Below, in pieces: positions 1-19,374 of a DNA stretch of 19,374 nucleotides. Both the position numbers and the translations under genes were made by a program. The DNA comes from a virus (Duplodnaviria > Heunggongvirae > Uroviricota > Caudoviricetes). The stretch is taken from IMG/VR virus record IMGVR_UViG_2690316142_000006. One strand, 5' to 3'. Each line of letters begins with the position of its first letter. Positions within the stretch are counted from its first letter, which is position 1. Below the pieces are notes generated by a model. It was not told the DNA's origin. It saw nothing but the letters and a program-made list of their open reading frames with translations, and did not search any database.

Positions 1-372
1 GAAGGAGTGTCCGTTAAACTCAGGCTACCTCAGTCTGCTGATTTGAGTCGCTACAGTGGCACGGTGGTTAACCGTCCGACGTTTTTTGCTTTTGCAAAAG
101 GCGCGGGTGTGATGGGGGAAGCGGGACCTGAAGCCATTCTGCCACTGCGTCGCGGTGCTGATGGTAAGCTGGGGGGTGTGGCGGATACTGGTGGTTCAGG
201 CATGGTGATGTTTGCCCCGCAGTACAACATTGAGATCAATAACGATGGCACGAACGGGCAGATAGGTCCGGCTGCCCTGAAGGTGGTTTATGACCTCGGG
301 AAAAAAGCGGCCGCGGACTTTATGCAACAGCAGGCCCGTGATGGTGGCCGGTTAAGTGGAGCATACCGGTAA
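1..372 (+). CDS. H: Tail tape measure protein, C-terminal end (gpH-like); gene continues upstream of the window
   Basis: Frame is open from base 1 to TAA at 370-372. The stop overlaps the ATG of the M homologue, matching lambda order H-M-L-K-I-J. Gly-rich C-terminus. Confidence 0.7.
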   Translation, partial: EGVSVKLRLPQSADLSRYSGTVVNRPTFFAFAKGAGVMGEAGPEAILPLRRGADGKLGGVADTGGSGMVMFAPQYNIEINNDGTNGQIGPAALKVVYDLGKKAAADFMQQQARDGGRLSGAYR

Positions 373-701
373 TGGAGACGTTTCACTGGAAAGTGCGCCC
401 GGATATGAATGTGGTATCAGAGCCGAAAGTGGTGACAGTGAAGCTGGGCGATGGTTATGAACAGCGTCGTGCGGCGGGACTGAATAACCAGTTGTCGACT
501 TACAGCGTGAAGATACGTGTTCGTAAAGGTGAACACCCATTTTTAAAAGCCTTTCTGGAACGGCACGGTGGCGTCCGCGCATTTCAGTGGACGCCACCTT
601 ATGACTGGAAGCCGATCAGGGTGGTTTGTCGTAAATGGTCGGCAAGCGTGGGGGCGTTGTGGGTAACCATAACGGCAGATTTTGAACAGGTCGTGGCATA
701 G
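372..701 (+). CDS. M: Minor tail protein M (lambda gpM family)
   Basis: 109-aa ORF beginning METFHWKVRPDMNVVSEPKVV, recognised as lambda gpM-like. Start overlaps the H stop and the gene sits directly before the L homologue. Confidence 0.88.
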   Translation: METFHWKVRPDMNVVSEPKVVTVKLGDGYEQRRAAGLNNQLSTYSVKIRVRKGEHPFLKAFLERHGGVRAFQWTPPYDWKPIRVVCRKWSASVGALWVTITADFEQVVA

Positions 702-710
702 GAGGCTCTG

Positions 711-1409
711 ATGCAGGATATTCCACAGGAAACACATCATGAGACGACACGCCTCACTCAGTCAGCCCAGGTGGTGCTCTGGGAAATCGATCTGACAGAG
801 GTCGGTGGTGAACGTTATTTTTTCTGTAATGAGCAGAACGAAAAAGGTGAGCCGGTTACCTGGCAGGGGCGGCAGTATCAGGCATACCCCATTCAGGGGA
901 CGGGATTTGAACTGAACGGCAAGGGCAGTGCTGCCCGTCCGACACTGACGGTTTCTAACCTGCACGGAATGGTCACCGGGATGGCGGAAGACCTGCAGAG
1001 TCTGGTCGGCGGAACGGTGGTCAGGCGTAAGGTTTACGCCCGTTTTCTGGATGCGGTGAACTTCGTCAACGGAAACAGCGACGCCGATCCGGAACAGGAG
1101 GTGATCAGCCGCTGGCGCATCGAGCAGTGCAGCGAACTGAGCGCGGTCAGTGCCTCTTTTGTGCTGGCCACACCAACGGAGACGGATGGCGCGGTTTTCC
1201 CGGGGCGTATCATGCTGGCGAATACCTGTATGTGGACTTACCGTTCTGATGAGTGTGGTTACACGGGCAGGGCAGTGGCTGACGAGTTCGACAAACCAAC
1301 GACGGATATCCGGAAGGACAAATGCAGCAAGTGTATGCGCGGGTGTGAGTTGCGCAACAATACCGGTAATTTCGGCGGTTTCCTTTCCATCAATAAACTT
1401 TCTCAGTAA
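711..1409 (+). CDS. L: Minor tail protein L (lambda gpL family)
   Basis: 232-aa ORF with Cys-rich C-terminus (CSKCMRGCELRNNTGNFGGFLSINKLSQ) typical of gpL. Lies between the M and K homologues. Confidence 0.9.
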   Translation: MQDIPQETHHETTRLTQSAQVVLWEIDLTEVGGERYFFCNEQNEKGEPVTWQGRQYQAYPIQGTGFELNGKGSAARPTLTVSNLHGMVTGMAEDLQSLVGGTVVRRKVYARFLDAVNFVNGNSDADPEQEVISRWRIEQCSELSAVSASFVLATPTETDGAVFPGRIMLANTCMWTYRSDECGYTGRAVADEFDKPTTDIRKDKCSKCMRGCELRNNTGNFGGFLSINKLSQ

Positions 1410-1413
1410 ATCC

Positions 1414-2157
1414 ATGACACAGACAGAATCAGCGATTCTGGCGCACGCCCGGCGATGTGCGCCAGCGGAGTCGTGTGGCTTCGTGGTAAGAACGCCGGAG
1501 GGAGACAGGTATCTTCCCAGCGAGAATATCTCCGGTGAGCCGGAGGAACGGTTCCGGATGGCTCCGGAGGACTGGCTGCGGGCACAAATGCAGGGTGAGA
1601 TTGTGGCGCTGGTCCACAGTCATCCCGGTGGTCTGCCCTGGCTGAGTGAGGCTGACCGGCGGCTGCAGGTGCAGAGTGATTTGCCGTGGTGGCTGGTCTG
1701 CCGGGGGGCGATTCACAAGTTCCGCTGTGTGCCGCATCTCACCGGGCGGCGCTTTGAGCACGGGGTGACGGACTGTTACACGCTGTTCCGGGATGCTTAT
1801 CATCTGGCAGGGATTGAGATGCCGGATTTTCATCGCGGGGATGACTGGTGGCGTAACGGTCAGAATCTCTATCTTGACAATATGGAGGTGACGGGTTTTT
1901 ACCGTGTCGCACTGACAGAGGCACAGCCGGGCGATGTGCTGCTGTGCTGTTTTGGTTCATCGGTGCCGAATCATGCCGCCATTTACTGTGGTGACGGCGA
2001 GCTGCTGCACCATATTCCTGAACAACTGAGCAAACGAGAGAGGTATACCGACAAATGGCAGCGACGCACACACTCCCTCTGGCGTCACCGGGCATGGCGC
2101 GCATCTGCCTTTACGGGGATTTACAACGATTTGGTCGCCGCATCGACCTTCGTGTGA
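1414..2157 (+). CDS. K: Tail assembly protein K (MPN/JAMM plus NlpC/P60 motifs)
   Basis: Start chosen at the ATG (MTQTESAILAHARRC) 4 nt after the L stop; the track ORF from 1150 is an in-frame upstream extension inside L. JAMM-like motif HSHPGGLPWLSEAD (HxHx7SxxD); Cys (DCYTLF) and His (LLHHIP) as in NlpC/P60 peptidases. Confidence 0.85.
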   Translation: MTQTESAILAHARRCAPAESCGFVVRTPEGDRYLPSENISGEPEERFRMAPEDWLRAQMQGEIVALVHSHPGGLPWLSEADRRLQVQSDLPWWLVCRGAIHKFRCVPHLTGRRFEHGVTDCYTLFRDAYHLAGIEMPDFHRGDDWWRNGQNLYLDNMEVTGFYRVALTEAQPGDVLLCCFGSSVPNHAAIYCGDGELLHHIPEQLSKRERYTDKWQRRTHSLWRHRAWRASAFTGIYNDLVAASTFV

Positions 2158-2696
2158 AAACGGGGGCTGAAGCCATCCGGGCACTGGCCACACAGCTCCC
2201 GGCGTTTCGTCAGAAACTGAGTGACGGCTGGTATCAGGTGCGCATTGCCGGGCGTGATGCAGGTGAAACCGAATTGTCTGCCCGTCTTAATGAGCCGCTG
2301 GCAAATGGTGCAGTGATCCACATAGTACCGCGTCTGGTGGGAGCTAAAAGTGGCGGTGTGTTTCAGGCGGTGCTGGGGGCGGCTGTTATGGCGGTTGCTA
2401 TATGGATGCCGGGGGTAGGAATTATGGCGAGTAATCTGCTGTTTTCTCTCGGTGCCAGTATGACGCTTGGCGGTGTTGCACAGATGCTGGCACCGAAAGC
2501 CAGAACTCCCCGTACACAGACAACGGATAACGGTAAGCAGAACACGTATTTCTCGTCACTGGATAACATGGTTGCCCAGGGCAATGTTCTGCCCGTTCTG
2601 TACGGTGAAATGCGCGTGGGGTCACGTGTGGTTTCTCAGGAGATCAGCACGGCAGACGAAGGGGATGGTGGTCAGGTTGTGGTGATTGGTCGCTGA
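2055..2696 (+). CDS. I: Tail assembly protein I (lambda gpI family)
   Basis: 213-aa ORF MAATHTLPLASPGMARICLYGDLQRF with hydrophobic Gly/Ala-rich central segment. Overlaps the 3' end of K. An alternative start at 2094 (MARICLY) is possible. Confidence 0.85.
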   Translation: MAATHTLPLASPGMARICLYGDLQRFGRRIDLRVKTGAEAIRALATQLPAFRQKLSDGWYQVRIAGRDAGETELSARLNEPLANGAVIHIVPRLVGAKSGGVFQAVLGAAVMAVAIWMPGVGIMASNLLFSLGASMTLGGVAQMLAPKARTPRTQTTDNGKQNTYFSSLDNMVAQGNVLPVLYGEMRVGSRVVSQEISTADEGDGGQVVVIGR

Positions 2697-2714
2697 TGCA
2701 AAATGTTTTATGTG

Positions 2715-2738
2715 AAACCGCCTGCGGGCGGTTTTGTC
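2715..2738 (+). terminator. Short GC hairpin plus T-run in the I-J intergenic spacer (possible weak terminator or attenuator)
   Basis: aaaccgcc-tgcg-ggcggttt followed by tg/tcgttt. GAGG Shine-Dalgarno at 2750-2753 precedes the J ATG at 2757. Confidence 0.3.
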
Positions 2739-2756
2739 GTTTATGGAGCGTGAGGA

Positions 2757-5700
2757 ATGGGTAAAGGCAGCAGTAAGGGGCATACCCCGCGCGAAGCGAA
2801 GGACAACCTGAAATCCACGCAGTTGCTGAGTGTGATTGATGCCATCAGCGAAGGGCCGGTTGACGGTCCGGTGGATGGATTAAAAAGCGTGCTGCTGAAC
2901 GGTACGCCGGTCCTGGACAGCGAGGGGAAGACAAACTTTTCCGGTGTTACGGTGGTGTTCCGTGCAGGTGAGCAGGAGCAGACACCGCCGGAGGGTTTTG
3001 AATCCTCCGGCTCCGAGACGGTGCTGGGTACGGAAGTGAAATATGACACGCCGATCACCCGGACCATCACGTCGGCAAACATCGACCGTCTGCGCCTGAC
3101 CTTCGGTGTGCAGGCACTGGTGGAAACCACCTCAAAGGGTGACCGGAATCCGTCGGAAGTCCGCCTGCTGGTTCAGATACAGCGTAACGGTGGCTGGGTG
3201 ACGGAAAAAGACATCACCATTAAGGGCAAAACCACTTCGCAGTATCTGGCCTCGGTGGTGGTGGGTAACCTGCCGCCGCGCCCGTTTAATATCCGGATGC
3301 GCAGGATGACACCGGACAGCACCACAGACCAGCTGCAGAACAAAACGCTCTGGTCGTCGTACACCGAAATCATCGATGTGAAACAGTGCTACCCGAACAC
3401 GGCGCTGGTCGGCGTGCAGGTGGATTCAGAGCAGTTCGGTAACCAGCAGGTGAGTCGCAATTATCATCTTCGCGGGCGCATTCTGCAGGTGCCGTCGAAC
3501 TATAATCCGCAGACGCGGCAATACAGCGGTATCTGGGACGGAACGCTTAAGCCAGCATACAGCAACAACATGGCCTGGTGTCTGTGGGACATGCTCACTC
3601 ATCCGCGCTACGGCATGGGGAAACGTCTTGGTGCGGCAGATGTGGACAAATGGGCGCTGTATGTCATCGGCCAGTACTGCGACCAGTCAGTGACGGACGG
3701 ATTTGGCGGCACGGAGCCGCGCATCACCTGTAACTCTTACCTGACCACACAGCGTAAGGCGTGGGATGTTCTCAGTGATTTCTGCTCGGCGATGCGCTGT
3801 ATGCCGGTATGGAACGGACAGATGCTGACGTTCGTGCAGGACCGACCGTCGGATAAGGTGTGGACCTATAACCGCAGTAATGTGGTGATGCCGGACGATG
3901 GCGCGCCGTTCCGCTACAGCTTCAGCGCCCTGAAGGACCGCCATAATGCCGTTGAGGTGAACTGGATTGACCCAGATAACGGCTGGGAGACGGCGACAGA
4001 GCTTGTGGAGGATACGCAGGCCATTGTCCGTTACGGTCGTAACGTCACGAAGATGGATGCCTTTGGCTGTACCAGCCGGGGGCAGGCACACCGAGCCGGG
4101 CTGTGGCTGATTAAAACGGAACTGCTGGAAACGCAGACCGTGGACTTCAGCGTGGGCGCAGAAGGGCTTCGCCATGTACCGGGTGATGTCATTGAAATCT
4201 GCGATGATGATTATGCCGGTATCAGCACCGGTGGTCGCGTACTGGCGGTGAACAGCCAGACCCGGACGCTGACGCTCGACCGTGAAATCACGCTGCCGTC
4301 CTCCGGTACCACGCTGATAAGCCTGGTTGACGGAAGTGGCAATCCGGTCAGCGTGGAGGTCCAGTCCGTCACCGACGGCGTGAAGGTGAAAGTGAGCCGG
4401 GTTCCTGACGGCGTTGCAGAATACAGCGTGTGGGGGCTGAAGCTGCCGACGCTGCACCAGCGATTGTTCCGCTGCGTGAGTATCCGTGAGAACGACGACG
4501 GCACGTATGCCATCACCGCCGTGCAGCATGTGCCGGAAAAAGAGGCCATCGTGGATAACGGGGCACACTTTGACGGTGACCGGCGCGGCACGGTGAATGG
4601 TGTCACGCCGCCAGCGGTGCAGCACCTGACTGCCGAAGTCACCGCAGACAGCGGGGAATATCAGGTGCTGGCGCGATGGGACACGCCGAAGGTGGTGAAG
4701 GGTGTGAGCTTCCTGCTTCGCCTGACCGTGGCAGCGGACGACGGCAGTGAGCGGCTGGTCAGCACAGCCAGGACGACGGAAACCACATACCGCTTCAGGC
4801 AGCTGGCGCTGGGGAATTACAGTCTGACAGTCCGGGCGGTAAATGCCCGGGGGCAGCAGGGCGATCCGGCGTCGGTATCGTTCCGGATTGCGGCACCGGC
4901 AGCGCCTGTCACTATTGAACTGATACCGGGGTATTTTCAGATAACGGCGGTCCCGAAACTGGCTGTATATGACCCGACGGTGCAGTTTGAGTTCTGGTTT
5001 TCGGAAAAGCGGATTGCGGATATCAGGCAGGTTGAAACCAGCGCCCGCTATCTTGGCACGGCGCTGTACTGGATAGCCGCCAGTATCAATATCAGGCCGG
5101 GCCATGATTATTATTTTTACGTTCGCAGTGTGAACACCGTTGGCAAATCGGCATTTGTGGAGGCCATCGGTCGGGCGAGCGATGATGCAGAAGGTTATCT
5201 GAATTTTTATAAAGGGTTGATCAATAAAACGCATCTCGGCAAGGAGTTGTGGACGCAGATTGATAACGGTCAGCTTGCGCCGGACCTGACTGAAATCAGG
5301 ACGTCCATTACGAATGTCAGCAATGAAATCACGCTGCCATCCTCCGGCACCACGCTGATAAGCCTGGTTGACGGGCAGGGGAATCCGGTCAGCGTGGAGG
5401 TCCAGTCCGTCACCGACGGCGTGAAGGTAAAAGTGAGCCGTGTTCCTGACGGTGTTGCTGAATACAGCGTGTGGGGGCTGAAGCTGCCGACGCTGCACCA
5501 GCGATTGTTCCGCTGCGTGAGTATCCGTGAGAACGACGACGGCACGTATGCCATCACCGCCGTGCAGCATGTGCCGGAAAAAGAAGCCATCGTGGATAAC
5601 GGGGCGCACTTTGACGGCGACCAGAGCGGCACGGTGAATGGTGTCACGCCGCCAGCGGTGCAGCACCTGACTGCCGAAGTCACCGCAGACAGCGGGGAAT

Positions 5701-7295
5701 ATCAGGTGCTGGCGCGCTGGGACACGCCGAAGGTGGTGAAGGGCGTGAGCTTCCTGCTCCGTCTGACCGTAACAGCGGATGACGGCAGTGAGCGGCTGGT
5801 CAGCACGGCCCGGACGACGGAAACCACTTACCGCTTCACACAACTGGCGCTGGGGAACTACAGGCTGACAGTCCGGGCAGTAAATGCGTGGGGGCAGCAG
5901 GGCGATCCGGCGTCGGTATCGTTCCGGATTGCCGCACCGGCAGCGCTGTCGCGGATTGAGCTGACGCCGGGCTATTTTCAGATAACCGCCACGCCGCATC
6001 TTGCGGTTTATGATCCGACGGTACAGTTTGAGTTCTGGTTCTCGGAAAAGCGGATTGCGGATATCAGGCAGGTTGAAACCACAGCACGCTATCTTGGCAC
6101 GGCGCTGTACTGGATAGCCGCCAGTATCAATATCAAACCGGGCCATGATTATTACTTTTATATCCGCAGTGTGAACACCGTTGGCAAATCGGCATTCGTG
6201 GAGGCTGTTGGTCAGCCGAGTGATGATGCATCCGGTTATCTGGATTTTTTCAAAGGCGAGATAGGGAAAACCCATCTGGCTCAGGAGCTGTGGACGCAGA
6301 TTGATAACGGTCAGCTTGCGCCTGACCTGGCTGAAATCAGGACGTCCATTACGGATGTCAGCAATGAAATCACGCAGACCGTCAATAAGAAACTGGAAGA
6401 CCAGAGTGCGGCAATTCAGCAGATACAGAAGGTTCAGGTTGATACAAATAATAACCTGAACAGCATGTGGGCTGTGAAGCTGCAGCAGATGCAGGACGGA
6501 CGCCTTTATATCGCGGGTATTGGTGCCGGTATTGAGAACACCCCTGACGGCATGCAGAGTCAGGTGCTGCTGGCGGCGGACAGGATTGCGATGGTTAATC
6601 CTGCGAATGGCAACACAAAACCGATGTTTGTTGGTCAGGGCGATCAGATATTCATGAACGACGTGTTCCTGAAACGCCTGACGGCCCCCACCATTACCAG
6701 CGGTGGAAATCCATCGGCATTTTCCCTGACTCCGGACGGAAAGCTGACCGCTAAAAATGCGGATATCAGTGGCAGTGTGAATGCGAACGCCGGGACGCTC
6801 AACAATGTCACGGTAAATGAAAACTGTACGATTAAGGGCATGCTGGAGGCGACTCAGGTCAGAGGTGACTTCGTTAAAGCTGTATCCAAATCATTTCCGA
6901 AACAGGCTGGTACGTGGGGTAACACGGAAACACCAAACGGGACGGTTACAGTCACCATAAGCGATGATCATAACTTTGACCGCCAGATTATTATTCCGCC
7001 CATTATTTTTAACGGTATAGCGTATGACGATCCGGGGAGCGGAAATAACCCAGGAGGCACGCGATACACGGGTTATGGTTTTGAAGTTCGCAAAAACGGC
7101 GTATTAATCGCATCCAGAGAAACTAAAGGTGCCATTCCCGGTAGTTACAGTGCAGTTATTGATATGCCTAGTGGTGGTGGTAGCGTCACTCTGGAGTTTA
7201 AGATTTTCCAGAAAGGCAATCAGGGGGCAGGCAATATCACCGACTGTACGGTGATTGTGACCAAAAAAGCGGCTTCCGGCATCAGTATTCGTTGA
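2757..7295 (+). CDS. J: Tail tip / central tail fibre host-specificity protein J, 1512 aa, with an internal in-frame duplication
   Basis: N-terminus [34 protein letters not shown] matches lambda J as I recall it. Conserved J motifs throughout (e.g. [21 protein letters not shown]). About 347 aa longer than a lambda-type J because of the tandem duplication at 4284-6365. Confidence 0.9.
4284..6365 (+). repeat. Tandem direct repeat inside J: two 1041-bp units (4284-5324 and 5325-6365), about 95% identical
   Basis: Both units start with gaaatcacgcTGCC and the same 10-mer gaaatcacgc recurs at 6366. Protein block from [16 protein letters not shown] to TSIT(N/D)VSNE occurs twice. Unit length is a multiple of 3. 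Confidence 0.85.
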
Positions 7296-7317
7296 AATAT
7301 TTATAACCCCAATAAAT

Positions 7318-7344
7318 GGCGTCAGGAATGACGCCTTTTTTATT
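7318..7344 (+). terminator. Rho-independent terminator downstream of J
   Basis: ggcgtca-ggaa-tgacgcc followed by ttttttatt, 23 nt after the J stop. Confidence 0.6.
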
Positions 7345-7365
7345 GCAGAAAAGCGAGAGGTAATT

Positions 7366-7842
7366 ATGCGTAAAGTTTGTGCAGCCATTTTGTCCGCAGC
7401 CATTTGCCTGGCCGTATCCGGTGCGCCTGCATGGGCGTCTGAACATCAGTCCACGCTGAGCGCGGGGTATCTTCATGCCCGGACCAACGTTCCCGGCAGT
7501 GATGATCTGAACGGGATTAACGTGAAATACCGTTATGAGTTTACGGATACGCTGGGGCTGGTGACGTCATTCAGCTATGCAGGAGACAAGAATCGCCAGC
7601 TGACCCGTTACAGCGATACCCGCTGGCATGAAGATTCCGTGCGTAACCGCTGGTTCAGCGTGATGGCGGGGCCGTCTGTGCGCGTGAATGAATGGTTCAG
7701 CGCGTATGCGATGGCGGGTGTGGCTTACAGCCGTGTGTCGACTTTTTCCGGGGATTATATCCGCGTAACTGACAATAAGGGGAAAACGCACGATGTGCTG
7801 ACCGGAAGTGATGACGGTCGCCACAGCAACACGTCTCTGGCG
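7366..7842 (+). CDS. lom: Lom family outer-membrane protein (Ail/Lom/OmpX/PagC beta-barrel family), 3'-truncated at an N/junction
   Basis: Signal peptide MRKVCAAILSAAICLAVSGAPAWA, GAGAGG RBS, aromatic-rich beta-strand pattern. The reading frame runs into N at 7843 and then into J-internal sequence. Confidence 0.75.
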
Positions 7843-7843
7843 N
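7843..7843. other. Single unresolved base (N) at a junction between lom sequence and J-internal sequence
   Basis: Literal n in the sequence. Flanks are lom ...tctctggcg on the left and J-internal gcaccggcagcgcctgtcact on the right. Confidence 0.95.
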
Positions 7844-9187
7844 GCACCGGCAGCGCCTGTCACTATTGAACTGATACCGGGGTATTTTCAGATAACGGCG
7901 GTCCCGAAACTGGCTGTATATGACCCGACGGTGCAGTTTGAGTTCTGGTTTTCGGAAAAGCGGATTGCGGATATCAGGCAGGTTGAAACCACAGCACGCT
8001 ATCTTGGCACGGCGCTGTACTGGATAGCCGCCAGTATCAATATCAGGCCGGGCCATGATTATTATTTTTACGTTCGCAGTGTGAACACCGTTGGCAAATC
8101 GGCATTTGTGGAGGCCATCGGTCGGGCGAGCGATGATGCAGAAGGTTATCTGAATTTTTATAAAGGGTTGATCAATAAAACGCATCTCGGCAAGGAGTTG
8201 TGGACGCAGATTGATAACGGTCAGCTTGCGCCGGACCTGACTGAAATCAGGACGTCCATTACGAATGTCAGCAATGAAATCACGCAAACCGTCAATAAAA
8301 AACTGGAAAATCAGAGTGCTGCAATCCAGCAGATACAGAAAGTTCAGGTTGATACAAATAATAACCTGAACAGCATGTGGGCTGTGAAGCTGCAACAGAT
8401 GAAGGACGGACGCCTTTATATTGCGGGTATCGGTGCCGGTATTGAGAATACGCCAGCAGGAATGCAGAGTCAGGTGCTGCTGGCGGCAGACAGGATTGCG
8501 ATGATTAATCCTGCGAATGGCAACACAAAGCCGATGTTTGTTGGTCAGGGCGATCAGATATTCATGAACGACGTGTTCCTGAAATGCCTGACGGCTCCGA
8601 CCATTACCAGCGGCGGTAATCCTCCGGCATTTTCCCTGACACCTGGCGGACGGCTGACGGCGAAAAATGCCGATATCAGCGGTAACGTGAACGCGAACTC
8701 CGGGACGCTCAACAACGTCACGATTAATAAGAACTGTCGGGTTCTGGGAAAATTGTCCGCGAACCAGATTGAAGGCGATCTCGTTAAAACAGTGGGCAAA
8801 CCTTTCCCACGGGACTCCCGGGCACCGGAGAGGTGGCCATCAGGGACCATTACCGTCAGGGTTTATGACGATCAGCCGTTTGATCGGCAAATTGTTATTC
8901 CCGCGGTGGCGTTTCGCGGTGCTAAACATGAGCGGAAGAATAACAATATTTATTCGTCATGCCGCCTGATAGTGAAGAAAAACGGTGCTGAAATTTATAA
9001 CCGAACGACCCTGGATAATACGCTGATATATACGGGTGTTATTGATATGCCTGCCGGTCACGGTCACATGACGCTGGAGTTTTCTGTATCGGCATGGCTG
9101 GTAAATGGCTGGTATCCCACAGCAAGTATCAGCGATTTGCTGGTTGTGGTGATGAAGAAAGCCACTGCAGGCATCACGATTAGCTGA
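7844..9187 (+). CDS. J: J protein 3' fragment (second copy, no 5' part) with a different C-terminal receptor-binding region
   Basis: Starts mid-gene at sequence equivalent to J position 4893. A mosaic of unit-1-like and unit-2-like sequence. The C-terminal ~150 aa (...[35 protein letters not shown]...[10 protein letters not shown]) differs from the copy at 6840-7295. Confidence 0.8.
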
Positions 9188-9206
9188 ATTTTATAACCCA
9201 GATACG

Positions 9207-9233
9207 GGCACCAGAAATGGTGCCTTTTTTATT
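9207..9233 (+). terminator. Rho-independent terminator downstream of the J fragment
   Basis: ggcacc-agaaat-ggtgcc followed by ttttttatt. Confidence 0.55.
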
Positions 9234-9254
9234 GCAGAAAAGCGAGAGGTAATT

Positions 9255-9854
9255 ATGCGTAAAGTTTGTGCAGCCATTTTGTCCGCAGCCATTTGCCTGG
9301 CCGTATCCGGTGCGCCTGCATGGGCGTCTGAACATCAGTCCACGCTGAGCGCCGGGTATCTTCAGACCCATACTGATATGCCAGGCAGCGATGACCTGAA
9401 GGGCATTAACGTGAAATACCGTTATGAGTTTACGGACACGCTGGGGCTGATTACGTCATTCAGTTATGCCAACGCTGAAGATGAGCAAAAAACGCATTAC
9501 AGCGATACCCGCTGGCATGAGGATTCCGTGCGTAACCGCTGGTTCAGCGTGATGGCGGGGCCGTCTGTGCGCGTGAATGAATGGTTCAGCGCGTATGCGA
9601 TGGCGGGCGTGGCTTACAGCCGTGTGTCGACCTTCTCCGGGGATTATCTCCGCGTAACTGACAACAAGGGGAAAACGCACGATGTGCTGACCGGAAGTGA
9701 TGGCGGTCGCCACAGCAACACGTCTCTGGCGTGGGGGGCTGGCGTGCAGTTTAACCCGACCGAATCCGTGGCCATTGACCTTGCTTATGAAGGTTCCGGC
9801 AGTGGTGACTGGCGCACTGACGGTTTCATCGTGGGTGTCGGTTATAAGTTCTGA
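9255..9854 (+). CDS. lom: Lom family outer-membrane protein, intact (199 aa)
   Basis: Complete ORF with signal peptide and C-terminal ...GFIVGVGYKF ending in the terminal aromatic typical of beta-barrel outer-membrane proteins. Same upstream RBS context as the other copies. Confidence 0.9.
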   Translation: MRKVCAAILSAAICLAVSGAPAWASEHQSTLSAGYLQTHTDMPGSDDLKGINVKYRYEFTDTLGLITSFSYANAEDEQKTHYSDTRWHEDSVRNRWFSVMAGPSVRVNEWFSAYAMAGVAYSRVSTFSGDYLRVTDNKGKTHDVLTGSDGGRHSNTSLAWGAGVQFNPTESVAIDLAYEGSGSGDWRTDGFIVGVGYKF

Positions 9855-9882
9855 TTAGCCAGGTAACACAGTGTTATGACTG

Positions 9883-9906
9883 CCCGCTGGTTCAGGCGGG
9901 CTTTTT
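9883..9906 (+). terminator. Rho-independent terminator downstream of lom
   Basis: gcccgc-tggttca-gcgggc followed by ttttt, immediately upstream of the stf start. Confidence 0.6.
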
Positions 9907-9917
9907 GTGGGGTGAAT

Positions 9918-10244
9918 ATGGCAGTAAAGATTTCAGGTGTACTGAAAGATGGGGCGGGTAAACCTGTCGTAAATTGTGCGATTGAACTGCGGGCCAGAAG
10001 AACCAGTCCGACCGTTGTGGCACACGTTGTTGCCACTTGCGTGACGGACAATAACGGTGCTTATGTGATTGAGGCTGAGCCGGGGTATTACGAGGTTGCG
10101 CTTCACTGTAACGGCTGGCAGCCAACCCGTGTCGGGGATATTGATGTGGCACCGACTGATGCACCGGGGACACTGAACGCGTTTCTGAATGCACCAAAGG
10201 ATGGTGATTTACGTCCGGAGGTGATGAAGTGTCAGCGCCAGTGA
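9918..10244 (+). pseudogene. stf: Side tail fibre (stf) 5' fragment, interrupted after about 109 codons by an IS21-family element
   Basis: [12 protein letters not shown]... is homologous to the N-terminus of the full stf at 14926 but a diverged allele. The ORF stops at TGA 10242-10244 where the IS terminal sequence begins. The track ORF start at 9876 lies inside the lom terminator hairpin, so 9918 is preferred. Confidence 0.75.
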
Positions 10245-10330
10245 TATAAGACGGTAATTCGCCATTTGGATTGTCCGCTCCACCCAACATGTTGTTTCCT
10301 TAAGGTTCTCACACCAGAAAGGACATCAAC

Positions 10331-12300
<1,970 letters not shown>

Positions 12301-12349
12301 CGAAAGTATTTAGCGGGCATGAAAATGGCAAATAACGGTCAAACATCGT

Positions 12350-12360
12350 NNNNNNNNNNN
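12350..12360. other. Assembly gap (11 N)
   Basis: Literal n run. Left flank is the IS21-family right end, right flank is J-internal sequence. Confidence 0.98.
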
Positions 12361-14274
12361 AATCCGGTCAGCGTGGAGGTCCAGTCCGTCACCGACGGCG
12401 TGAAGGTAAAAGTGAGCCGTGTTCCTGACGGTGTTGCTGAATACAGCGTGTGGGGGCTGAAGCTGCCGACGCTGCACCAGCGATTGTTCCGCTGCGTGAG
12501 TATCCGTGAGAACGACGACGGCACGTATGCCATCACCGCCGTGCAGCATGTGCCGGAAAAAGAAGCCATCGTGGATAACGGGGCGCACTTTGACGGCGAC
12601 CAGAGCGGCACGGTGAATGGTGTCACGCCGCCAGCGGTGCAGCACCTGACTGCCGAAGTCACCGCAGACAGCGGGGAATATCAGGTGCTGGCGCGCTGGG
12701 ACACGCCGAAGGTGGTGAAGGGCGTGAGCTTCCTGCTCCGTCTGACCGTAACAGCGGATGACGGCAGTGAGCGGCTGGTCAGCACGGCCCGGACGACGGA
12801 AACCACTTACCGCTTCACACAACTGGCGCTGGGGAACTACAGGCTGACAGTCCGGGCAGTAAATGCGTGGGGGCAGCAGGGCGATCCGGCGTCGGTATCG
12901 TTCCGGATTGCCGCACCGGCAGCGCTGTCGCGGATTGAGCTGACGCCGGGCTATTTTCAGATAACCGCCACGCCGCATCTTGCGGTTTATGATCCGACGG
13001 TACAGTTTGAGTTCTGGTTCTCGGAAAAGCGGATTGCGGATATCAGGCAGGTTGAAACCACAGCACGCTATCTTGGCACGGCGCTGTACTGGATAGCCGC
13101 CAGTATCAATATCAAACCGGGCCATGATTATTACTTTTATATCCGCAGTGTGAACACCGTTGGCAAATCGGCATTCGTGGAGGCTGTTGGTCAGCCGAGT
13201 GATGATGCATCCGGTTATCTGGATTTTTTCAAAGGCGAGATAGGGAAAACCCATCTGGCTCAGGAGCTGTGGACGCAGATTGATAACGGTCAGCTTGCGC
13301 CTGACCTGGCTGAAATCAGGACGTCCATTACGGATGTCAGCAATGAAATCACGCAGACCGTCAATAAGAAACTGGAAGACCAGAGTGCGGCAATTCAGCA
13401 GATACAGAAGGTTCAGGTTGATACAAATAATAACCTGAACAGCATGTGGGCTGTGAAGCTGCAGCAGATGCAGGACGGACGCCTTTATATCGCGGGTATT
13501 GGTGCCGGTATTGAGAACACCCCTGACGGCATGCAGAGTCAGGTGCTGCTGGCGGCGGACAGGATTGCGATGGTTAATCCTGCGAATGGCAACACAAAAC
13601 CGATGTTTGTTGGTCAGGGCGATCAGATATTCATGAACGACGTGTTCCTGAAACGCCTGACGGCCCCCACCATTACCAGCGGTGGAAATCCATCGGCATT
13701 TTCCCTGACTCCGGACGGAAAGCTGACCGCTAAAAATGCGGATATCAGTGGCAGTGTGAATGCGAACGCCGGGACGCTCAACAATGTCACGGTAAATGAA
13801 AACTGTACGATTAAGGGCATGCTGGAGGCGACTCAGGTCAGAGGTGACTTCGTTAAAGCTGTATCCAAATCATTTCCGAAACAGGCTGGTACGTGGGGTA
13901 ACACGGAAACACCAAACGGGACGGTTACAGTCACCATAAGCGATGATCATAACTTTGACCGCCAGATTATTATTCCGCCCATTATTTTTAACGGTATAGC
14001 GTATGACGATCCGGGGAGCGGAAATAACCCAGGAGGCACGCGATACACGGGTTATGGTTTTGAAGTTCGCAAAAACGGCGTATTAATCGCATCCAGAGAA
14101 ACTAAAGGTGCCATTCCCGGTAGTTACAGTGCAGTTATTGATATGCCTAGTGGTGGTGGTAGCGTCACTCTGGAGTTTAAGATTTTCCAGAAAGGCAATC
14201 AGGGGGCAGGCAATATCACCGACTGTACGGTGATTGTGACCAAAAAAGCGGCTTCCGGCATCAGTATTCGTTGA
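12361..14274 (+). CDS. J: J protein 3' fragment (third copy), identical to J 5382-7295
   Basis: Translation is identical to the C-terminal 637 aa of the full J. The track ORF 12319-14274 (MKMANNGQTSXXXX...) is an artificial fusion across the N gap. Confidence 0.8.
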
Positions 14275-14296
14275 AATATTTATAACCCCAATAAAT

Positions 14297-14323
14297 GGCG
14301 TCAGGAATGACGCCTTTTTTATT
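14297..14323 (+). terminator. Rho-independent terminator downstream of J (copy of 7318-7344)
   Basis: Same hairpin plus T-run as 7318-7344. Confidence 0.6.
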
Positions 14324-14344
14324 GCAGAAAAGCGAGAGGTAATT

Positions 14345-14827
14345 ATGCGTAAAGTTTGTGCAGCCATTTTGTCCGCAGCCATTTGCCTGGCCGTATCCGG
14401 TGCGCCTGCATGGGCGTCTGAACATCAGTCCACGCTGAGCGCGGGGTATCTTCATGCCCGGACCAACGTTCCCGGCAGTGATGATCTGAACGGGATTAAC
14501 GTGAAATACCGTTATGAGTTTACGGATACGCTGGGGCTGGTGACGTCATTCAGCTATGCAGGAGACAAGAATCGCCAGCTGACCCGTTACAGCGATACCC
14601 GCTGGCATGAAGATTCCGTGCGTAACCGCTGGTTCAGCGTGATGGCGGGGCCGTCTGTGCGCGTGAATGAATGGTTCAGCGCGTATGCGATGGCGGGTGT
14701 GGCTTACAGCCGTGTGTCGACTTTTTCCGGGGATTATATCCGCGTAACTGACAATAAGGGGAAAACGCACGATGTGCTGACCGGAAGTGATGACGGTCGC
14801 CACAGCAACACGTCTCTGGCGCACTGA
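14345..14827 (+). pseudogene. lom: lom with an 83-bp internal deletion and frameshift (premature stop)
   Basis: Aligns to lom 9255-9854 up to ...NTSLA (tctctggcg), then resumes at cactgacggtttcatcgtgggtgtcggttataaattctga. This omits the equivalent of 9732-9814; the deleted block ends in ctggcg, the same hexamer that precedes it. Confidence 0.75.
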
Positions 14828-14888
14828 CGGTTTCATCGTGGGTGTCGGTTATAAATTCTGATTAGCCAGGTAACACAGTGTTATGACA

Positions 14889-14914
14889 GCCCGCCGGTTC
14901 AGGCGGGCTTTTTT
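14889..14914 (+). terminator. Rho-independent terminator downstream of lom
   Basis: gcccgcc-ggttca-ggcgggc followed by tttttt. Confidence 0.6.
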
Positions 14915-14925
14915 GTGGGGTGAAT

Positions 14926-17900
14926 ATGGCAGTAAAGATTTCAGGTGTACTGAAAGACGGCACAGGAAAACCGGTACAGAACTGCACAATCCAGCTGAAA
15001 GCAAAACGTAACAGCACCACGGTGGTGGTGAACACGCTGGCCTCAGAAAATCCGGATGAAGCCGGGCGTTACAGCATGGACGTTGAGTACGGTCAGTACA
15101 GCGTTATTCTGTTGGTGGAAGGATTCCCGCCGTCACATGCCGGGACCATCACCGTGTATGAAGATTCCCGACCCGGTACGCTGAATGATTTTCTCGGTGC
15201 CATGACGGAGGATGATGCCCGTCCGGAGGCACTGCGCCGTTTTGAGCTGATGGTGGAAGAGGTGGCGCGTAACGCGTCCGCGGTGGCACAGAACACGGCA
15301 GCCGCGAAGAAATCAGCCAGCGATGCCAGCACATCAGCCCGTGAGGCGGCAACCCATGCGACTGATGCTGCAGATTCAGCACGTGCAGCCAGCACGTCAG
15401 CCGGACAGGCCGCTTCGTCGGCTCAGTCAGCGTCTTCCAGCGCAGGAACGGCATCAACAAAGGCCACTGAAGCCTCAAAAAGTGCTGCCGCTGCAGAGTC
15501 CTCAAAAAGCGCGGCGGCTACCAGTGCCGGTGCGGCGAAAACGTTAGAAACGAATGCGGCAGCGTCACAACAATCAGCAGCCACTTCTGCATCCACCGCG
15601 ACCACGAAAGCGTCAGAAGCTGCCACCTCAGCCCGGGATGCGTCGGCTTCAAAAGAGGCGGCAAAATCATCAGAAACGAACGCATCATCAAGCGCCAGTA
15701 GCGCAGCTTCCTCGGCGACGGCGGCTGCAAATTCTGCGAAGGCGGCCAAAACGTCCGAGACGAACGCCAGGTCTTCTGAAACGGCAGCGGGACAGAGTGC
15801 CTCAGCTGCGGCAGGCTCAAAAACAGCGGCTGCGTCGTCTGCCAGCGCCGCGTCAACAAGTGCCGGGCAGGCCTCAGCCAGTGCCACCGCCGCCGGAAAA
15901 TCGGCAGAAAGCGCCGCATCATCCGCTTCAACAGCCACAACGAAGGCTGGCGAAGCCACTGAGCAGGCCACGGCAGCAGCGAGGTCAGCTTCCGCAGCGA
16001 AGACATCCGAAACGAACGCGAAAGCGTCGGAAACCCGTGCAGAATCCTCAAAAACGGCTGCCGCATCGTCCGCCAGTTCGGCGGCGTCATCGGCATCATC
16101 GGCGTCTGCTTCAAAAGATGAGGCGACCAGACAGGCGTCAGCAGCGAAGGGCAGCGCCACGACGGCATCCACGAAGGCGACAGAGGCTGCTGGTAGTGCG
16201 ACGGCAGCAGCTCAGAGCAAAAGTACGGCGGAATCTGCAGCAACGCGCGCTGAGACAGCGGCAAAACGGGCAGAGGATATTGCATCCGCCGTGGCGCTTG
16301 AGGATGCGAGCACGACGAAAAAGGGGATAGTACAGCTCAGTAGTGCGACTAACAGCACTTCCGAGTCACTGGCGGCAACACCAAAAGCCGTTAAGGCCGC
16401 GTATGACCTGGCTAACGGGAAATACACCGCACAGGATGCAACGACAGCACAGAAAGGGATAATCCAGCTAAGCAGCGCGACCAACAGCACGTCTGAAACG
16501 CTGGCGGCAACGCCAAAGGCAGTAAAAGCAGCCAATGACAATGCTGAGAAACGTCTGCAGAAAGATCAGAACGGTGCGGATATCCCTGGCAAAGACACCT
16601 TTACGAAAAATATTGGTGCCTGCCGTGCCTTCGGTGGGTCAGTAAGCACAACAACAGGAAACTGGACGACTGCACAGTTTATCGAGTGGCTGGATTCTCA
16701 GGGAGCATTTAACCATCCATACTGGATGTGCAAGGGTTCCTGGTCTTATGGCAATAATAAAATCATTACTGATACTGGCTGCGGTAATATTCATCTCGCC
16801 GGAGCTGTCATTGAAGTAATGGGGATAAAGTCAGCGATGACGATCCGCATTACCACTCCGACCACATCCAGCGGTGGCGGAACAACCAACGCCCAGTTTA
16901 CCTATATTAATCACGGAACAGATTATTCACCTGGCTGGCGAAGGGACTATAACTCCAGAAATAAGCCAACGGCATCAGAGATCGGGGCGCTACCGTCAGG
17001 TGGAACAGCAGTATCATCAGTTAATCTGGCTTCAAAAGGTCGGGTAGCCGCGCTGACAGACAATACGCAGGGGGCAGCAGGTCTTGAGTTATACGAGGTG
17101 TATAACAACGGATATCCAACAGCGTATGGAAATATCATTCACCTGAAAGGGATGACAGCCGTTGGCGAAGGTGAGTTACTCATCGGCTGGAGTGGTACAA
17201 GCGGTGCTCATGCTCCGGCATTTATTCGTTCACGACGGGATACGACCGACGCAAACTGGTCGCCGTGGGCGCAGCTTTACACCTCGGCTCATCCTCCTGC
17301 AGAGTTTTATCCAGTCGGTGCACCAATCCCGTGGCCATCAGATACCGTTCCGTCTGGTTATGCCCTGATGCAGGGGCAGACTTTTGACAAATCTGCTTAC
17401 CCGAAACTTGCAGCCGCTTATCCGTCAGGCGTGATCCCTGATATGCGTGGCTGGACGATTAAGGGCAAGCCCGCCAGTGGTCGTGCCGTATTGTCTCAGG
17501 AACAGGATGGCATTAAATCGCACACCCACAGCGCCAGCGCATCCAGTACGGATTTGGGGACGAAAACCACATCGTCGTTTGATTACGGCACTAAATCCAC
17601 GAATAACACCGGGGCGCATACGCACAGTCTGAGCGGCTCTACAAGTTCAGCTGGGGCCCACCAACATAGTCAGACTGGGCCCAGAACGAATAGCGGGAGT
17701 CAACCTACTGGAATGTTTCCGGCAGGGAGTACTCAAGTTAGCGGGACTAATCAGGTTGGTATCAGTGGCTCATTAACCAGTGGCACCTCCCAATGGGTAG
17801 GTAAATCATCTTCAGAAGGAAACCATACACACTCACTGTCCGGCACAGCAGCATCTGCGGGTGCACACGCGCATACTGTCGGTATTGGTGCTCATACGCA

Positions 17901-18009
17901 CTCTGTTGCGATTGGTTCACATGGACACACCATCACCGTTAACGCTGCTGGTAACGCGGAAAACACCGTCAAAAACATCGCATTTAACTATATTGTGAGG
18001 CTCGCATAA
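14926..18009 (+). CDS. stf: Side tail fibre protein Stf (about 1027 aa) with a T4 gp37-like His-rich tip
   Basis: N-terminus [60 protein letters not shown] matches lambda Stf as I recall it. Long Ala/Ser/Thr-rich low-complexity shaft; two copies of KGI(V/I)[11 protein letters not shown](S/T)[11 protein letters not shown]; seven HxH motifs near the C-terminus. True start is ATG 14926; the track ORF starts at GTG 14920. Confidence 0.9.
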
Positions 18010-18590
18010 TGGCATTCAGAATGAGTGAACAAGCACGGACCATAAAAATTTATAACCTGCTGGCCGGAACTAATGAATTTATTGGTGAAGGTGACGCATA
18101 TATTCCGCCTCATACAGGTCTGCCTGCAAACAGTACCGATATTGCACCGCCAGATATTCCGGCTGGTTTCGTGGCTGTTTTCAACAGTGATGAGTCATCG
18201 TGGCATCTCGTTGAAGATCATCGGGGTAAAACGGTTTATGACGTGGCTTCCGGCGACGCGTTATTTATTTCTGAACTCGGCTCATTACCGGAAAATGTCA
18301 CCTGGTTATCCCCGGAAGGGGAGTTTCAGAAGTGGAACGGCACAGCCTGGGTGAAGGATACGGAAGCAGAAAAACTGTTCCGGATCCGGGAGGCGGAAGA
18401 AACAAAAAACAGCCTGATGCAGGTAGCCAGTGAGCATATAGCGCCGCTTCAGGATGCTGTGGATCTGGAGATCGCAACGGAGAAAGAAACCTTGTTGCTG
18501 GAAGCTTGGAAAAAGTATCGGGTGTTGCTGAACCGTGTTGATACATCAACTGCACCGGATATTGAATGGCCAGTAGCACCTATAGGGTAA
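18009..18590 (+). CDS. tfa: Tail fibre assembly protein Tfa (lambda Tfa family), 193 aa
   Basis: [54 protein letters not shown]... is near-identical to lambda Tfa as I recall it. Start overlaps the stf stop (taATGg). Confidence 0.9.
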
Positions 18591-18599
18591 ATTCGTAAT

Positions 18600-19339
18600 G
18601 ATTACCTAAATACGTTATTCTTTTGTTAAAAAAGTGATTTTGCTATAGGTAGGGAGTATGTTCTTGGATTAAGAATAAAAAATCGCCATGAAAGAGCTTC
18701 ATGGCGAGTACATAAACGTACAAAATGTGATGAAAGTAGAGTGGCGTAAGCCACTATATTAAGATATGACAATAGCGAAGAAAAGTAAATAACATTTTAT
18801 GGACGTTTAATTGTTAATTATAAAAACTAGAGTGCCCGATATTGTTTATCTTGCTTTAAAATAATGTACTCAAACCAAATTTTTGAGCTAAAAGCTCAAA
18901 TAATATAAATGCAATAATAATGTTTAATAAGACAATTAGCTTGCTTTGTATTTTCATTTCGGAATACTGTTAAGTAACTTTGATGACCCTAACAATAGAT
19001 CGGAATTTTCTTAGAGTCAATGGTCACTGTTTTTGCTTGCAAAGCAAATGTTTTGGTGGTTATAAGTCGTCTTAATATAGTCACGCATGCAACTTGTTCC
19101 ATGCGGAGATTAAAGATTGGAATATAACGCGAAGATGGAATTAAATTACATTTGCAATAATTAATTTATTATTACTCAATAATTACCGATATTATTATTG
19201 TAAATTAATCATTAGAATGCAAAAAGAAATGTAACGGCAAAATAAGAGGACGATAGCTGAGAAAAAAGCGTGCTTTCCCAATCTGGGGCAAATCACGTCT
19301 GAATGACACCTGAAAACAGGTGGTAGCCTCAAGAAGGCT
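18600..19339. other. AT-rich (about 30% GC) non-coding region between tfa and IS1
   Basis: No ORF of 60 aa or more on either strand. All three minus-strand frames carry frequent stops (tta/cta/tca triplets checked through 18716-18970). Several short palindromes. Base composition differs sharply from the ~50-55% GC tail genes. Confidence 0.7.
18671..18706 (-). terminator. Hairpin with a T-run on the minus strand (possible terminator for leftward transcription)
   Basis: cgccatgaa-agagc-ttcatggcg (9-bp stem); the flanking plus-strand aagaataaaaaat reads as a T-run on the minus strand. Confidence 0.4.
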
Positions 19340-19374
19340 GGTGATGCTGCCAACTTACTGATTTAGTGTATGAT
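19340..19374 (+). mobile_element. IS1 terminal inverted repeat and first 35 bp (element continues beyond the window)
   Basis: ggtgatgctgccaacttactgatttagtgtatgat matches the start of IS1 as I remember it. Confidence 0.8.

Follow-up and report, generated by a model that had tools for sequence, protein, structure and literature searches.

The stretch of DNA analysed here (the window, 19,374 nt, taken whole) is very probably a draft scaffold of Shigella sonnei ShIB2013 in which two lambda-like prophages have been interleaved, and the two divergent receptor-binding tips that end its J genes are ordinary types, both likely to use the porin OmpC. We refer to the prophages as P1 and P2, to the tip of P1 J as allele B, and to the tip of P2 J, which occurs twice in the window, as allele A/C.

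Make-up of the scaffold

The window was found to be identical to a whole draft scaffold, CXBN01000105.1 (19374 nt; assembly GCA_001251235.1). The CXBN01 record is listed as S. sonnei ShIB2013, a lineage IIIc strain of the collection described by Holt et al. in 2012 (strain table; PMC5447701 Table 1). The assembly is a short-read draft. Single-N or short-N gaps are typical of the scaffolders and gap fillers of that period, and the window contains one of each kind (Table 1). Its gene content consists of the distal tail genes M, L, K, I, J, lom, stf and tfa of lambda-like prophages. When the window was compared with itself, 5382-7842 proved to be identical to 12361-14821 (100% over 2461 nt), and this exact repeat is bounded precisely by the N gaps. 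Since the gaps at 7843 and 12350-12360 coincide with the ends of the repeat, the window is to be read as three pieces: A (1-7842), B (7844-12349) and C (12361-19374). The same comparison gave 91% identity between 4283-5334 and 5324-6375, 88.7% between 7844-8737 and both other J copies, and 99.1% between 4890-5334 and 7840-8285.

Table 1. Features of the window, with the evidence for each.
Feature	Coordinates	Strand	Evidence or remark
Piece A-left, degraded prophage P1	1..5334	+	Colinear with EIEC O121 prophage, 96.3%
Genes in piece A-left	tape-measure remnant; M 372-701; L 711-1409; K 1414-2157; I to 2696	+	
P1 J, 5' part (2578 nt, residues 1-859)	2757..5334	+	2757-5333: 857/859 aa vs 1159-aa J of CP019689.1
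P2 sequence misjoined to P1	5335..7842	+	Exact copy, 5382-7842 = 12361-14821; join absent elsewhere
Genes within 5335-7842	3' ~1.96 kb of P2 J (to 7295); truncated lom 7366-7842	+	
Scaffold gap, single N	7843..7843	.	Between lom fragment and mid-J
P1 J, 3' part (residues 713-1159)	7844..9187	+	7844-9184: 446/447 aa vs 1159-aa J of CP019689.1
Allele B receptor-binding domain, PPompW / gpJ-1A2 type	8735..9187	+	PF12421, 126.6 bits; PDB 9wca, E=5e-100
Intact P1 lom, 199 aa	9255..9854	+	Pfam Ail_Lom
P1 stf, 5' end, IS-cut	9876..10229	+	Pfam phage_tail_N; intact-stf homology stops at 10229
IS21-family insertion sequence, running into gap	10230..12349	+	istA 10331-11503 (390 aa); istB 11500-12300 (266 aa)
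Scaffold gap, 11 N	12350..12360	.	
Piece C, prophage P2	12361..19374	+	12688-14271: 528/528 aa vs 1165-aa J of CP019689.1
Genes in piece C	J 3' part 12361-14274; lom 14345-14827; stf 14926-18009; tfa 18009-18590	+	
Allele A/C receptor-binding domain, phage 434 (h434) type	13819..14274	+	95.4% vs 434 tip; PF12421, 90.3 bits

In the arrangement that we favour, P1 would comprise 1-5334 and 8286-12349, with a single 1159-aa J split across 2757-5334 and 7844-9187 and ending in allele B. P2 would occupy 12361-19374, with a 1165-aa J ending in allele A/C and followed by a truncated lom, stf and tfa, and 5335-7842 would be a second, misplaced copy of the P2 J-lom segment. Consistent with this arrangement, 31-5334 is colinear with a prophage of EIEC O121, and 7840-10229 continues the same prophage after an overlap of 445 nt. 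When 2757-5334 was joined to 8286-9187, an open frame of 3480 nt encoding 1159 aa was obtained. Within the overlap (~442 nt, 4893-5334 vs 7844-8285), the sole difference is a cluster of three nucleotides, ACCAGCGCCCGC at 5031-5042 vs ACCACAGCACGC at 7982-7993, which changes VETSARY to VETTARY. The version in piece B is that of P2, whereas the P1 J of finished genomes has the version of piece A-left, suggesting that reads from the two paralogues were mixed at the end of the contig. The same cluster had led us to consider piece A-left as belonging to a third prophage; this was dropped, as the J of finished S. sonnei carries the A-left version.

The longest J reading frame of the window (2757-7295, 1512 aa) fuses residues 1-859 of P1 J to residues ~512-1165 of P2 J. 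At the junction (5334/5335), AATGAAATCACGC runs into TGCCATCC, a position in J that lies 347 codons upstream, and 11 bases (5324-5334) are shared. As a result, the Ig_J and Ig_J_second domains are each doubled in this ORF, in comparison with one of each in lambda J. A 300-nt query across the join hit 14185 J places in 5426 complete E. coli genomes, none of which covered 80% of the query. A 44-mer spanning the join had no exact match in viral and genome contig collections or in the loci that we fetched, the source record excepted, and the 1512-aa product is on record from exactly one contig, CXBN01000105.1. The 1512-aa ORF is thus chimeric, drawing on two genes, and no finished genome has it. 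We infer that the gap-filling step followed the wrong paralogue.

Separate loci in finished S. sonnei genomes

The finished S. sonnei chromosomes place P1 and P2 at different loci. The P1 locus has a single 1159-aa J upstream of a Lom identical to that encoded at 9255-9854. The P2 locus encodes a J of 1165 aa, a Lom of 160 aa, an Stf of 1027 aa, identical to the product of 14926-18009, and a Tfa of 193 aa. The corresponding J segments of the window match the two J proteins of CP019689.1 (Table 1), and both finished J genes have the full domain set of lambda J. P1 and P2 are found at 1.987-2.008 Mb and 1.301-1.324 Mb, respectively, in CP104423.1, and at 4.617-4.647 Mb and 0.412-0.436 Mb in CP019689.1, a circle of 4.89 Mb; the distance between them is ~660 kb in both. 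A 48-mer specific to the P2 allele and a 52-mer specific to the P1 allele were each found, among the fetched finished loci, only in their own locus type. A true multi-copy J locus would be expected to have unbroken sequence at all of its copy junctions and the same layout in finished genomes; in the window two of the three junctions are N gaps, and finished genomes lack the layout. The original prediction had described a full, a middle and a third copy of J in one window, and these resolve, respectively, into the chimeric ORF, the 3' part of a P1 J split by the scaffold, and an exact repeat of 2461 nt ending at N gaps. The co-occurrence of both alleles in one window, which it had also pointed out, is likewise a product of scaffolding.

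It might be argued that the layout is real, the ShIB2013 prophage having been rearranged locally into an internally duplicated 1512-aa J and two partial Js, one of them with another tip, by recombination among J paralogues and IS elements. The J paralogues, being 88-99% identical over long stretches, would permit such recombination, and CP019689.1 has a tandem repeat of the P1 tail module. That tandem, however, consists of two whole 1159-aa Js of the same allele, which is another arrangement. Moreover, two of the three junctions of the window are N gaps, the copies of the repeat match at 100% and terminate precisely at these gaps, and the third junction rests on 11 shared nucleotides and occurs in no complete genome or other locus. 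Pieces A-left and B, in turn, share ~442 nt, and merging them restores exactly the J that finished genomes have, 3480 nt long. We therefore consider a real rearrangement extremely improbable, and prefer the interleaving of two prophages by assembly.

The finished loci also inform on the state of the two prophages. In P1 of these loci, a short tape-measure fragment and M are immediately preceded by IS elements; in the window, its stf is cut after the N-terminal domain, at 10229/10230, by the IS21-family element (10230-12349; NCBIfam transpos_IS21, 284 bits; IS21_help_AAA, 302 bits). P1 is a degraded remnant, unable to make virions itself, so the induction assay proposed with the original prediction would miss allele B. 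P2 retains, in the finished loci, the tail tube, chaperones, tape measure, M-L-K-I-J, stf, tfa and an integrase gene. A deletion of 83 nt between two direct repeats of CTGGCG (14821/14822) has shortened its lom, so that Lom is truncated to 160 aa. This truncation was considered as a further misjoin and ruled out, the same 160-aa Lom being present in finished genomes.

Several further features of these loci were observed. Piece A ends, at 7842, exactly at the point of the P2 lom deletion. The IS21-family element appears intact in the window, while istA at that site is split by an IS3-family element in the finished loci (L013, 11077-13440); what the window shows may therefore be a consensus drawn from copies of that IS elsewhere. 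Residue 960 of P1 J (8561-8563) is Cys in place of Arg in an otherwise invariant motif (FLKCLTAP), and the same substitution is found in finished S. sonnei. In CP019689.1 (S. sonnei 75/02), the P1 tail module M-L-K-I-J-lom appears twice in tandem in the assembled sequence, 9417 nt apart, with an IS3-family element in between, and both J copies (L014, 6454-9933 and 15871-19350) end in the allele B tip. To the right of P1 in finished S. sonnei (L010-L017, 15960-20600) we found a metal ABC transporter cluster of four genes (one ZnuA-like, one ABC_tran and two ABC-3 permeases), together with one gene for Usp and one for a porin. A prophage of this type is also present in the EIEC O121 relative (L003), where it carries ipaH beside yecD-aspS, which indicates a chromosomal site different from that of S. 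sonnei P1.

The two receptor-binding tips

The C-terminal peptides that the original prediction had quoted were all recovered at their positions, and its central observation, that the two C-termini are truly different alleles, was confirmed. Allele B and allele A/C are 39.5% identical over the last ~150 aa, with 12 gap positions; this is far from the identity of more than 90% that would have spoken against the prediction, and neither allele is a frameshifted remnant, as both are open to the stop codon. Allele A/C at 6840-7295 is an exact duplicate of 13819-14274. In windows of 60 nt, the nucleotide identity between pieces B and C is 78-98% in 8503-8742, 37-62% in 8713-9189 and 83-100% in 9190-9367. 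The divergent block is thus a cassette that extends from ~8735, the start of the receptor-binding domain, to the stop codon, with conserved DNA, 85-100% identical, on either side, and the swap point lies where it had been proposed.

Both tips scored well above the curated cut-off (26.2 bits) of Pfam PF12421 (Ig_GpJ_C), allele B with 126.6 bits over profile positions 2-135 of 135 and allele A/C with 90.3 bits over positions 1-134 of 135. Each ends a TipJ-type protein, after Ig_J_second and Phage_Tail_Tip, in the same domain order as in lambda J. Three solved gpJ structures, 9wca, 8xcj and 8iyk, were matched by both alleles: against 9wca (A8 gpJ), E-values were 4.9e-100 for B and 2.4e-78 for A/C, and against 8iyk (lambda gpJ), 1.4e-76 for B and 7.6e-69 for A/C, the matches to all three structures ranging from 5e-100 to 8e-69. 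Both alleles are, on this evidence, members of the gpJ C-terminal receptor-binding-domain family. By likeness to these structures, a trimeric Ig-like fold, whose bottom loops would contact a trimeric porin, is predicted for both tips.

Both alleles are already known and are ordinary, widespread types. Among 5426 complete E. coli genomes, 3378 contain DNA like that of allele B (8735-9187), in most cases with an identity of 90-95%, and 2113 contain DNA like that of allele A/C (6840-7295); by simple counting, at least 65 of the 5426 must carry both tip types. In deposited phages, tips with 96-99% identity to allele A/C occur in Evi, 2851, Kati, phi458, Tritos and many Stx1a and Stx2c phages. Tips with 92-95% identity to allele B occur in vB_EcoS-640R1 (94.7%), PPompW prophages, Stx2a phages, PhiR5_1 and P-EibA. 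A literature search on the PhiR phages bearing such tips returned nothing relevant.

The middle copy, which carries allele B, had been described as closer in architecture to the C-terminus of lambda J. This holds marginally, and in length and indels: allele B is 40.4% identical to the lambda tip with 1 gap position, as compared with 35.5% and 17 gap positions for allele A/C. An identity of 40%, however, is too low to suggest LamB as the receptor. The tip of lambda gpJ (PDB 8iyk, 8xcj), a LamB binder, shares with both alleles PF12421, the position at the end of TipJ and the core motifs, but it is just 40% (B) and 35% (A/C) identical, and its receptor-contacting loops are not conserved. The residues conserved with lambda are confined to the core motifs in both alleles, so that neither belongs to the lambda-type LamB-binding group.

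Receptors of the two tips and tip exchange

Phage 434 and lambda h434, which has the tail fibre gene of 434, are known to adsorb to OmpC (PMC3509688, PMC11101478). We found that the tip of phage 434 J (OL657226) is 95.4% identical to allele A/C over the last 151 aa, with no gaps and an equal length and indel pattern, the difference amounting to seven substitutions; P2 is otherwise another phage, a S. sonnei lambdoid prophage with a truncated lom. Allele B, being 38-41% identical to the 434 tip, falls outside this type.

The closest characterised relative of allele B is gpJ-1A2, in which lambda J carries, from residue 964, a gpJ tip that occurs naturally in E. coli (PMC11338833). Selection of this chimera was carried out in cells deleted for lamB, and on lambda particles it delivers DNA via OmpC variants in such a strain (Brodel et al., Nature 2024; PMC11338833). 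The gpJ-1A2 sequence came from PDF text that had lost bases in machine reading, and in an alignment tolerant of frameshifts 127 of 142 readable positions are identical to allele B. The natural tip of the PPompW_699 / O157 prophage J agrees with gpJ-1A2 at every readable position, three evident reading errors apart; aligned with allele B over 150 aa, PPompW_699 shows 92.7% identity and no indel. Allele B differs from this type at 11 of 150 residues, five of which lie in one loop (HERKNNN vs HEKEHTD). Allele B, moreover, resides in a degraded prophage that cannot form virions by itself. A third type of tip, also an OmpC user, represented by A8 gpJ (PDB 9wca/9wcb) and phage phi330, which are 98.7% identical (A8 gpJ of 9wca vs phi330), belongs to the same domain family; phi330 is known to need OmpC (PMC12502783). 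This type is 60-64% identical to allele B and 41-43% to allele A/C, and is a distinct tip type with a longer loop. A 2026 preprint on receptor prediction covers the GpJ of Drexlerviridae only and includes no lambdoid tips.

Judging from these relatives, both alleles most likely bind the porin OmpC, A/C as a tip of the 434 type and B as a tip of the PPompW/gpJ-1A2 type. The original prediction had inferred that the alleles probably target different outer-membrane receptors, which is unsupported, since the closest characterised relatives of both tips (434, 95.4%; PPompW_699, 92.7%) use OmpC. It is plausible that the two alleles differ in the OmpC variants that they accept: A8 and 1A2 are known to accept different sets of OmpC variants (PMC11338833), and by analogy the range of variants may differ between alleles B and A/C.

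Two other views of the tips should be weighed against this assignment. One is that they do target different receptors, for example LamB or another porin for B and OmpC for A/C. The low identity of the tips (~39%) would fit this view, as would the 67% identity of allele B to the tip of phage 21, whose native receptor is LamB, and the five-residue loop in which B differs from 1A2/PPompW. In addition, phage 21 is moved to OmpC by one mutation, and its tip is 81% identical to the OmpC-using phi330/A8 tip, which means that similarity does not fix the receptor. Nevertheless, the closest characterised relatives of both alleles are OmpC users (434, 95.4%; gpJ-1A2/PPompW, ~93%; PMC11338833, PMC3509688), and so is the A8/phi330 type at 60-64% identity to B; we regard different receptors as rather unlikely. 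The other view, which we hold to be less probable still, is that one allele is a dead remnant without a working tip. P1 is degraded, with IS elements replacing all that lay upstream of the tape-measure remnant and an IS-cut stf, and the J homologue of EIEC O121 is annotated as a pseudogene with an internal stop. The rebuilt P1 J, however, is an open 1159-aa frame, 99-100% conserved among finished S. sonnei, and its tip matches PF12421 with 126.6 bits over the full domain; P2 J is likewise intact at 1165 aa. We thus prefer two ordinary tips that both use OmpC.

The J trimer is known to close the tail tip, and the loops of its Ig-like end domain bind a trimeric porin, which triggers opening of the tail (PMC11101478). 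The tip domain is flanked by conserved DNA, and homologous recombination can therefore swap the cassette; such exchange among lambdoid phages and resident prophages would bring about a change of host range. The A8 and 1A2 chimeras were built directly on this modularity of the gpJ tip (PMC11338833). As a speculation that we think unlikely to hold, the 11 substitutions of allele B, of which five lie in one surface loop, might retarget the tip to a different OmpC variant or another porin, in which case the degraded P1 could act as a store for a host-range cassette that an infecting lambdoid phage could acquire through the flanks 8503-8742 and 9190-9367.

These data also call for caution in the use of drafts with several lambdoid prophages, which can show false tandem or fused tail genes. 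Before J copy numbers or pairs of J alleles are claimed from scaffolds of this kind, the sequence should be examined for N gaps and compared with finished genomes. The 1512-aa J, entered as a called gene in public protein collections, would mislead surveys of J length or domain duplication. Taken together, the two loci illustrate the known principle that the gpJ tip, set between conserved flanks, can be exchanged as a cassette, and, as two tips that are 39% identical both point to OmpC, they suggest that divergence alone does not predict a change of receptor.
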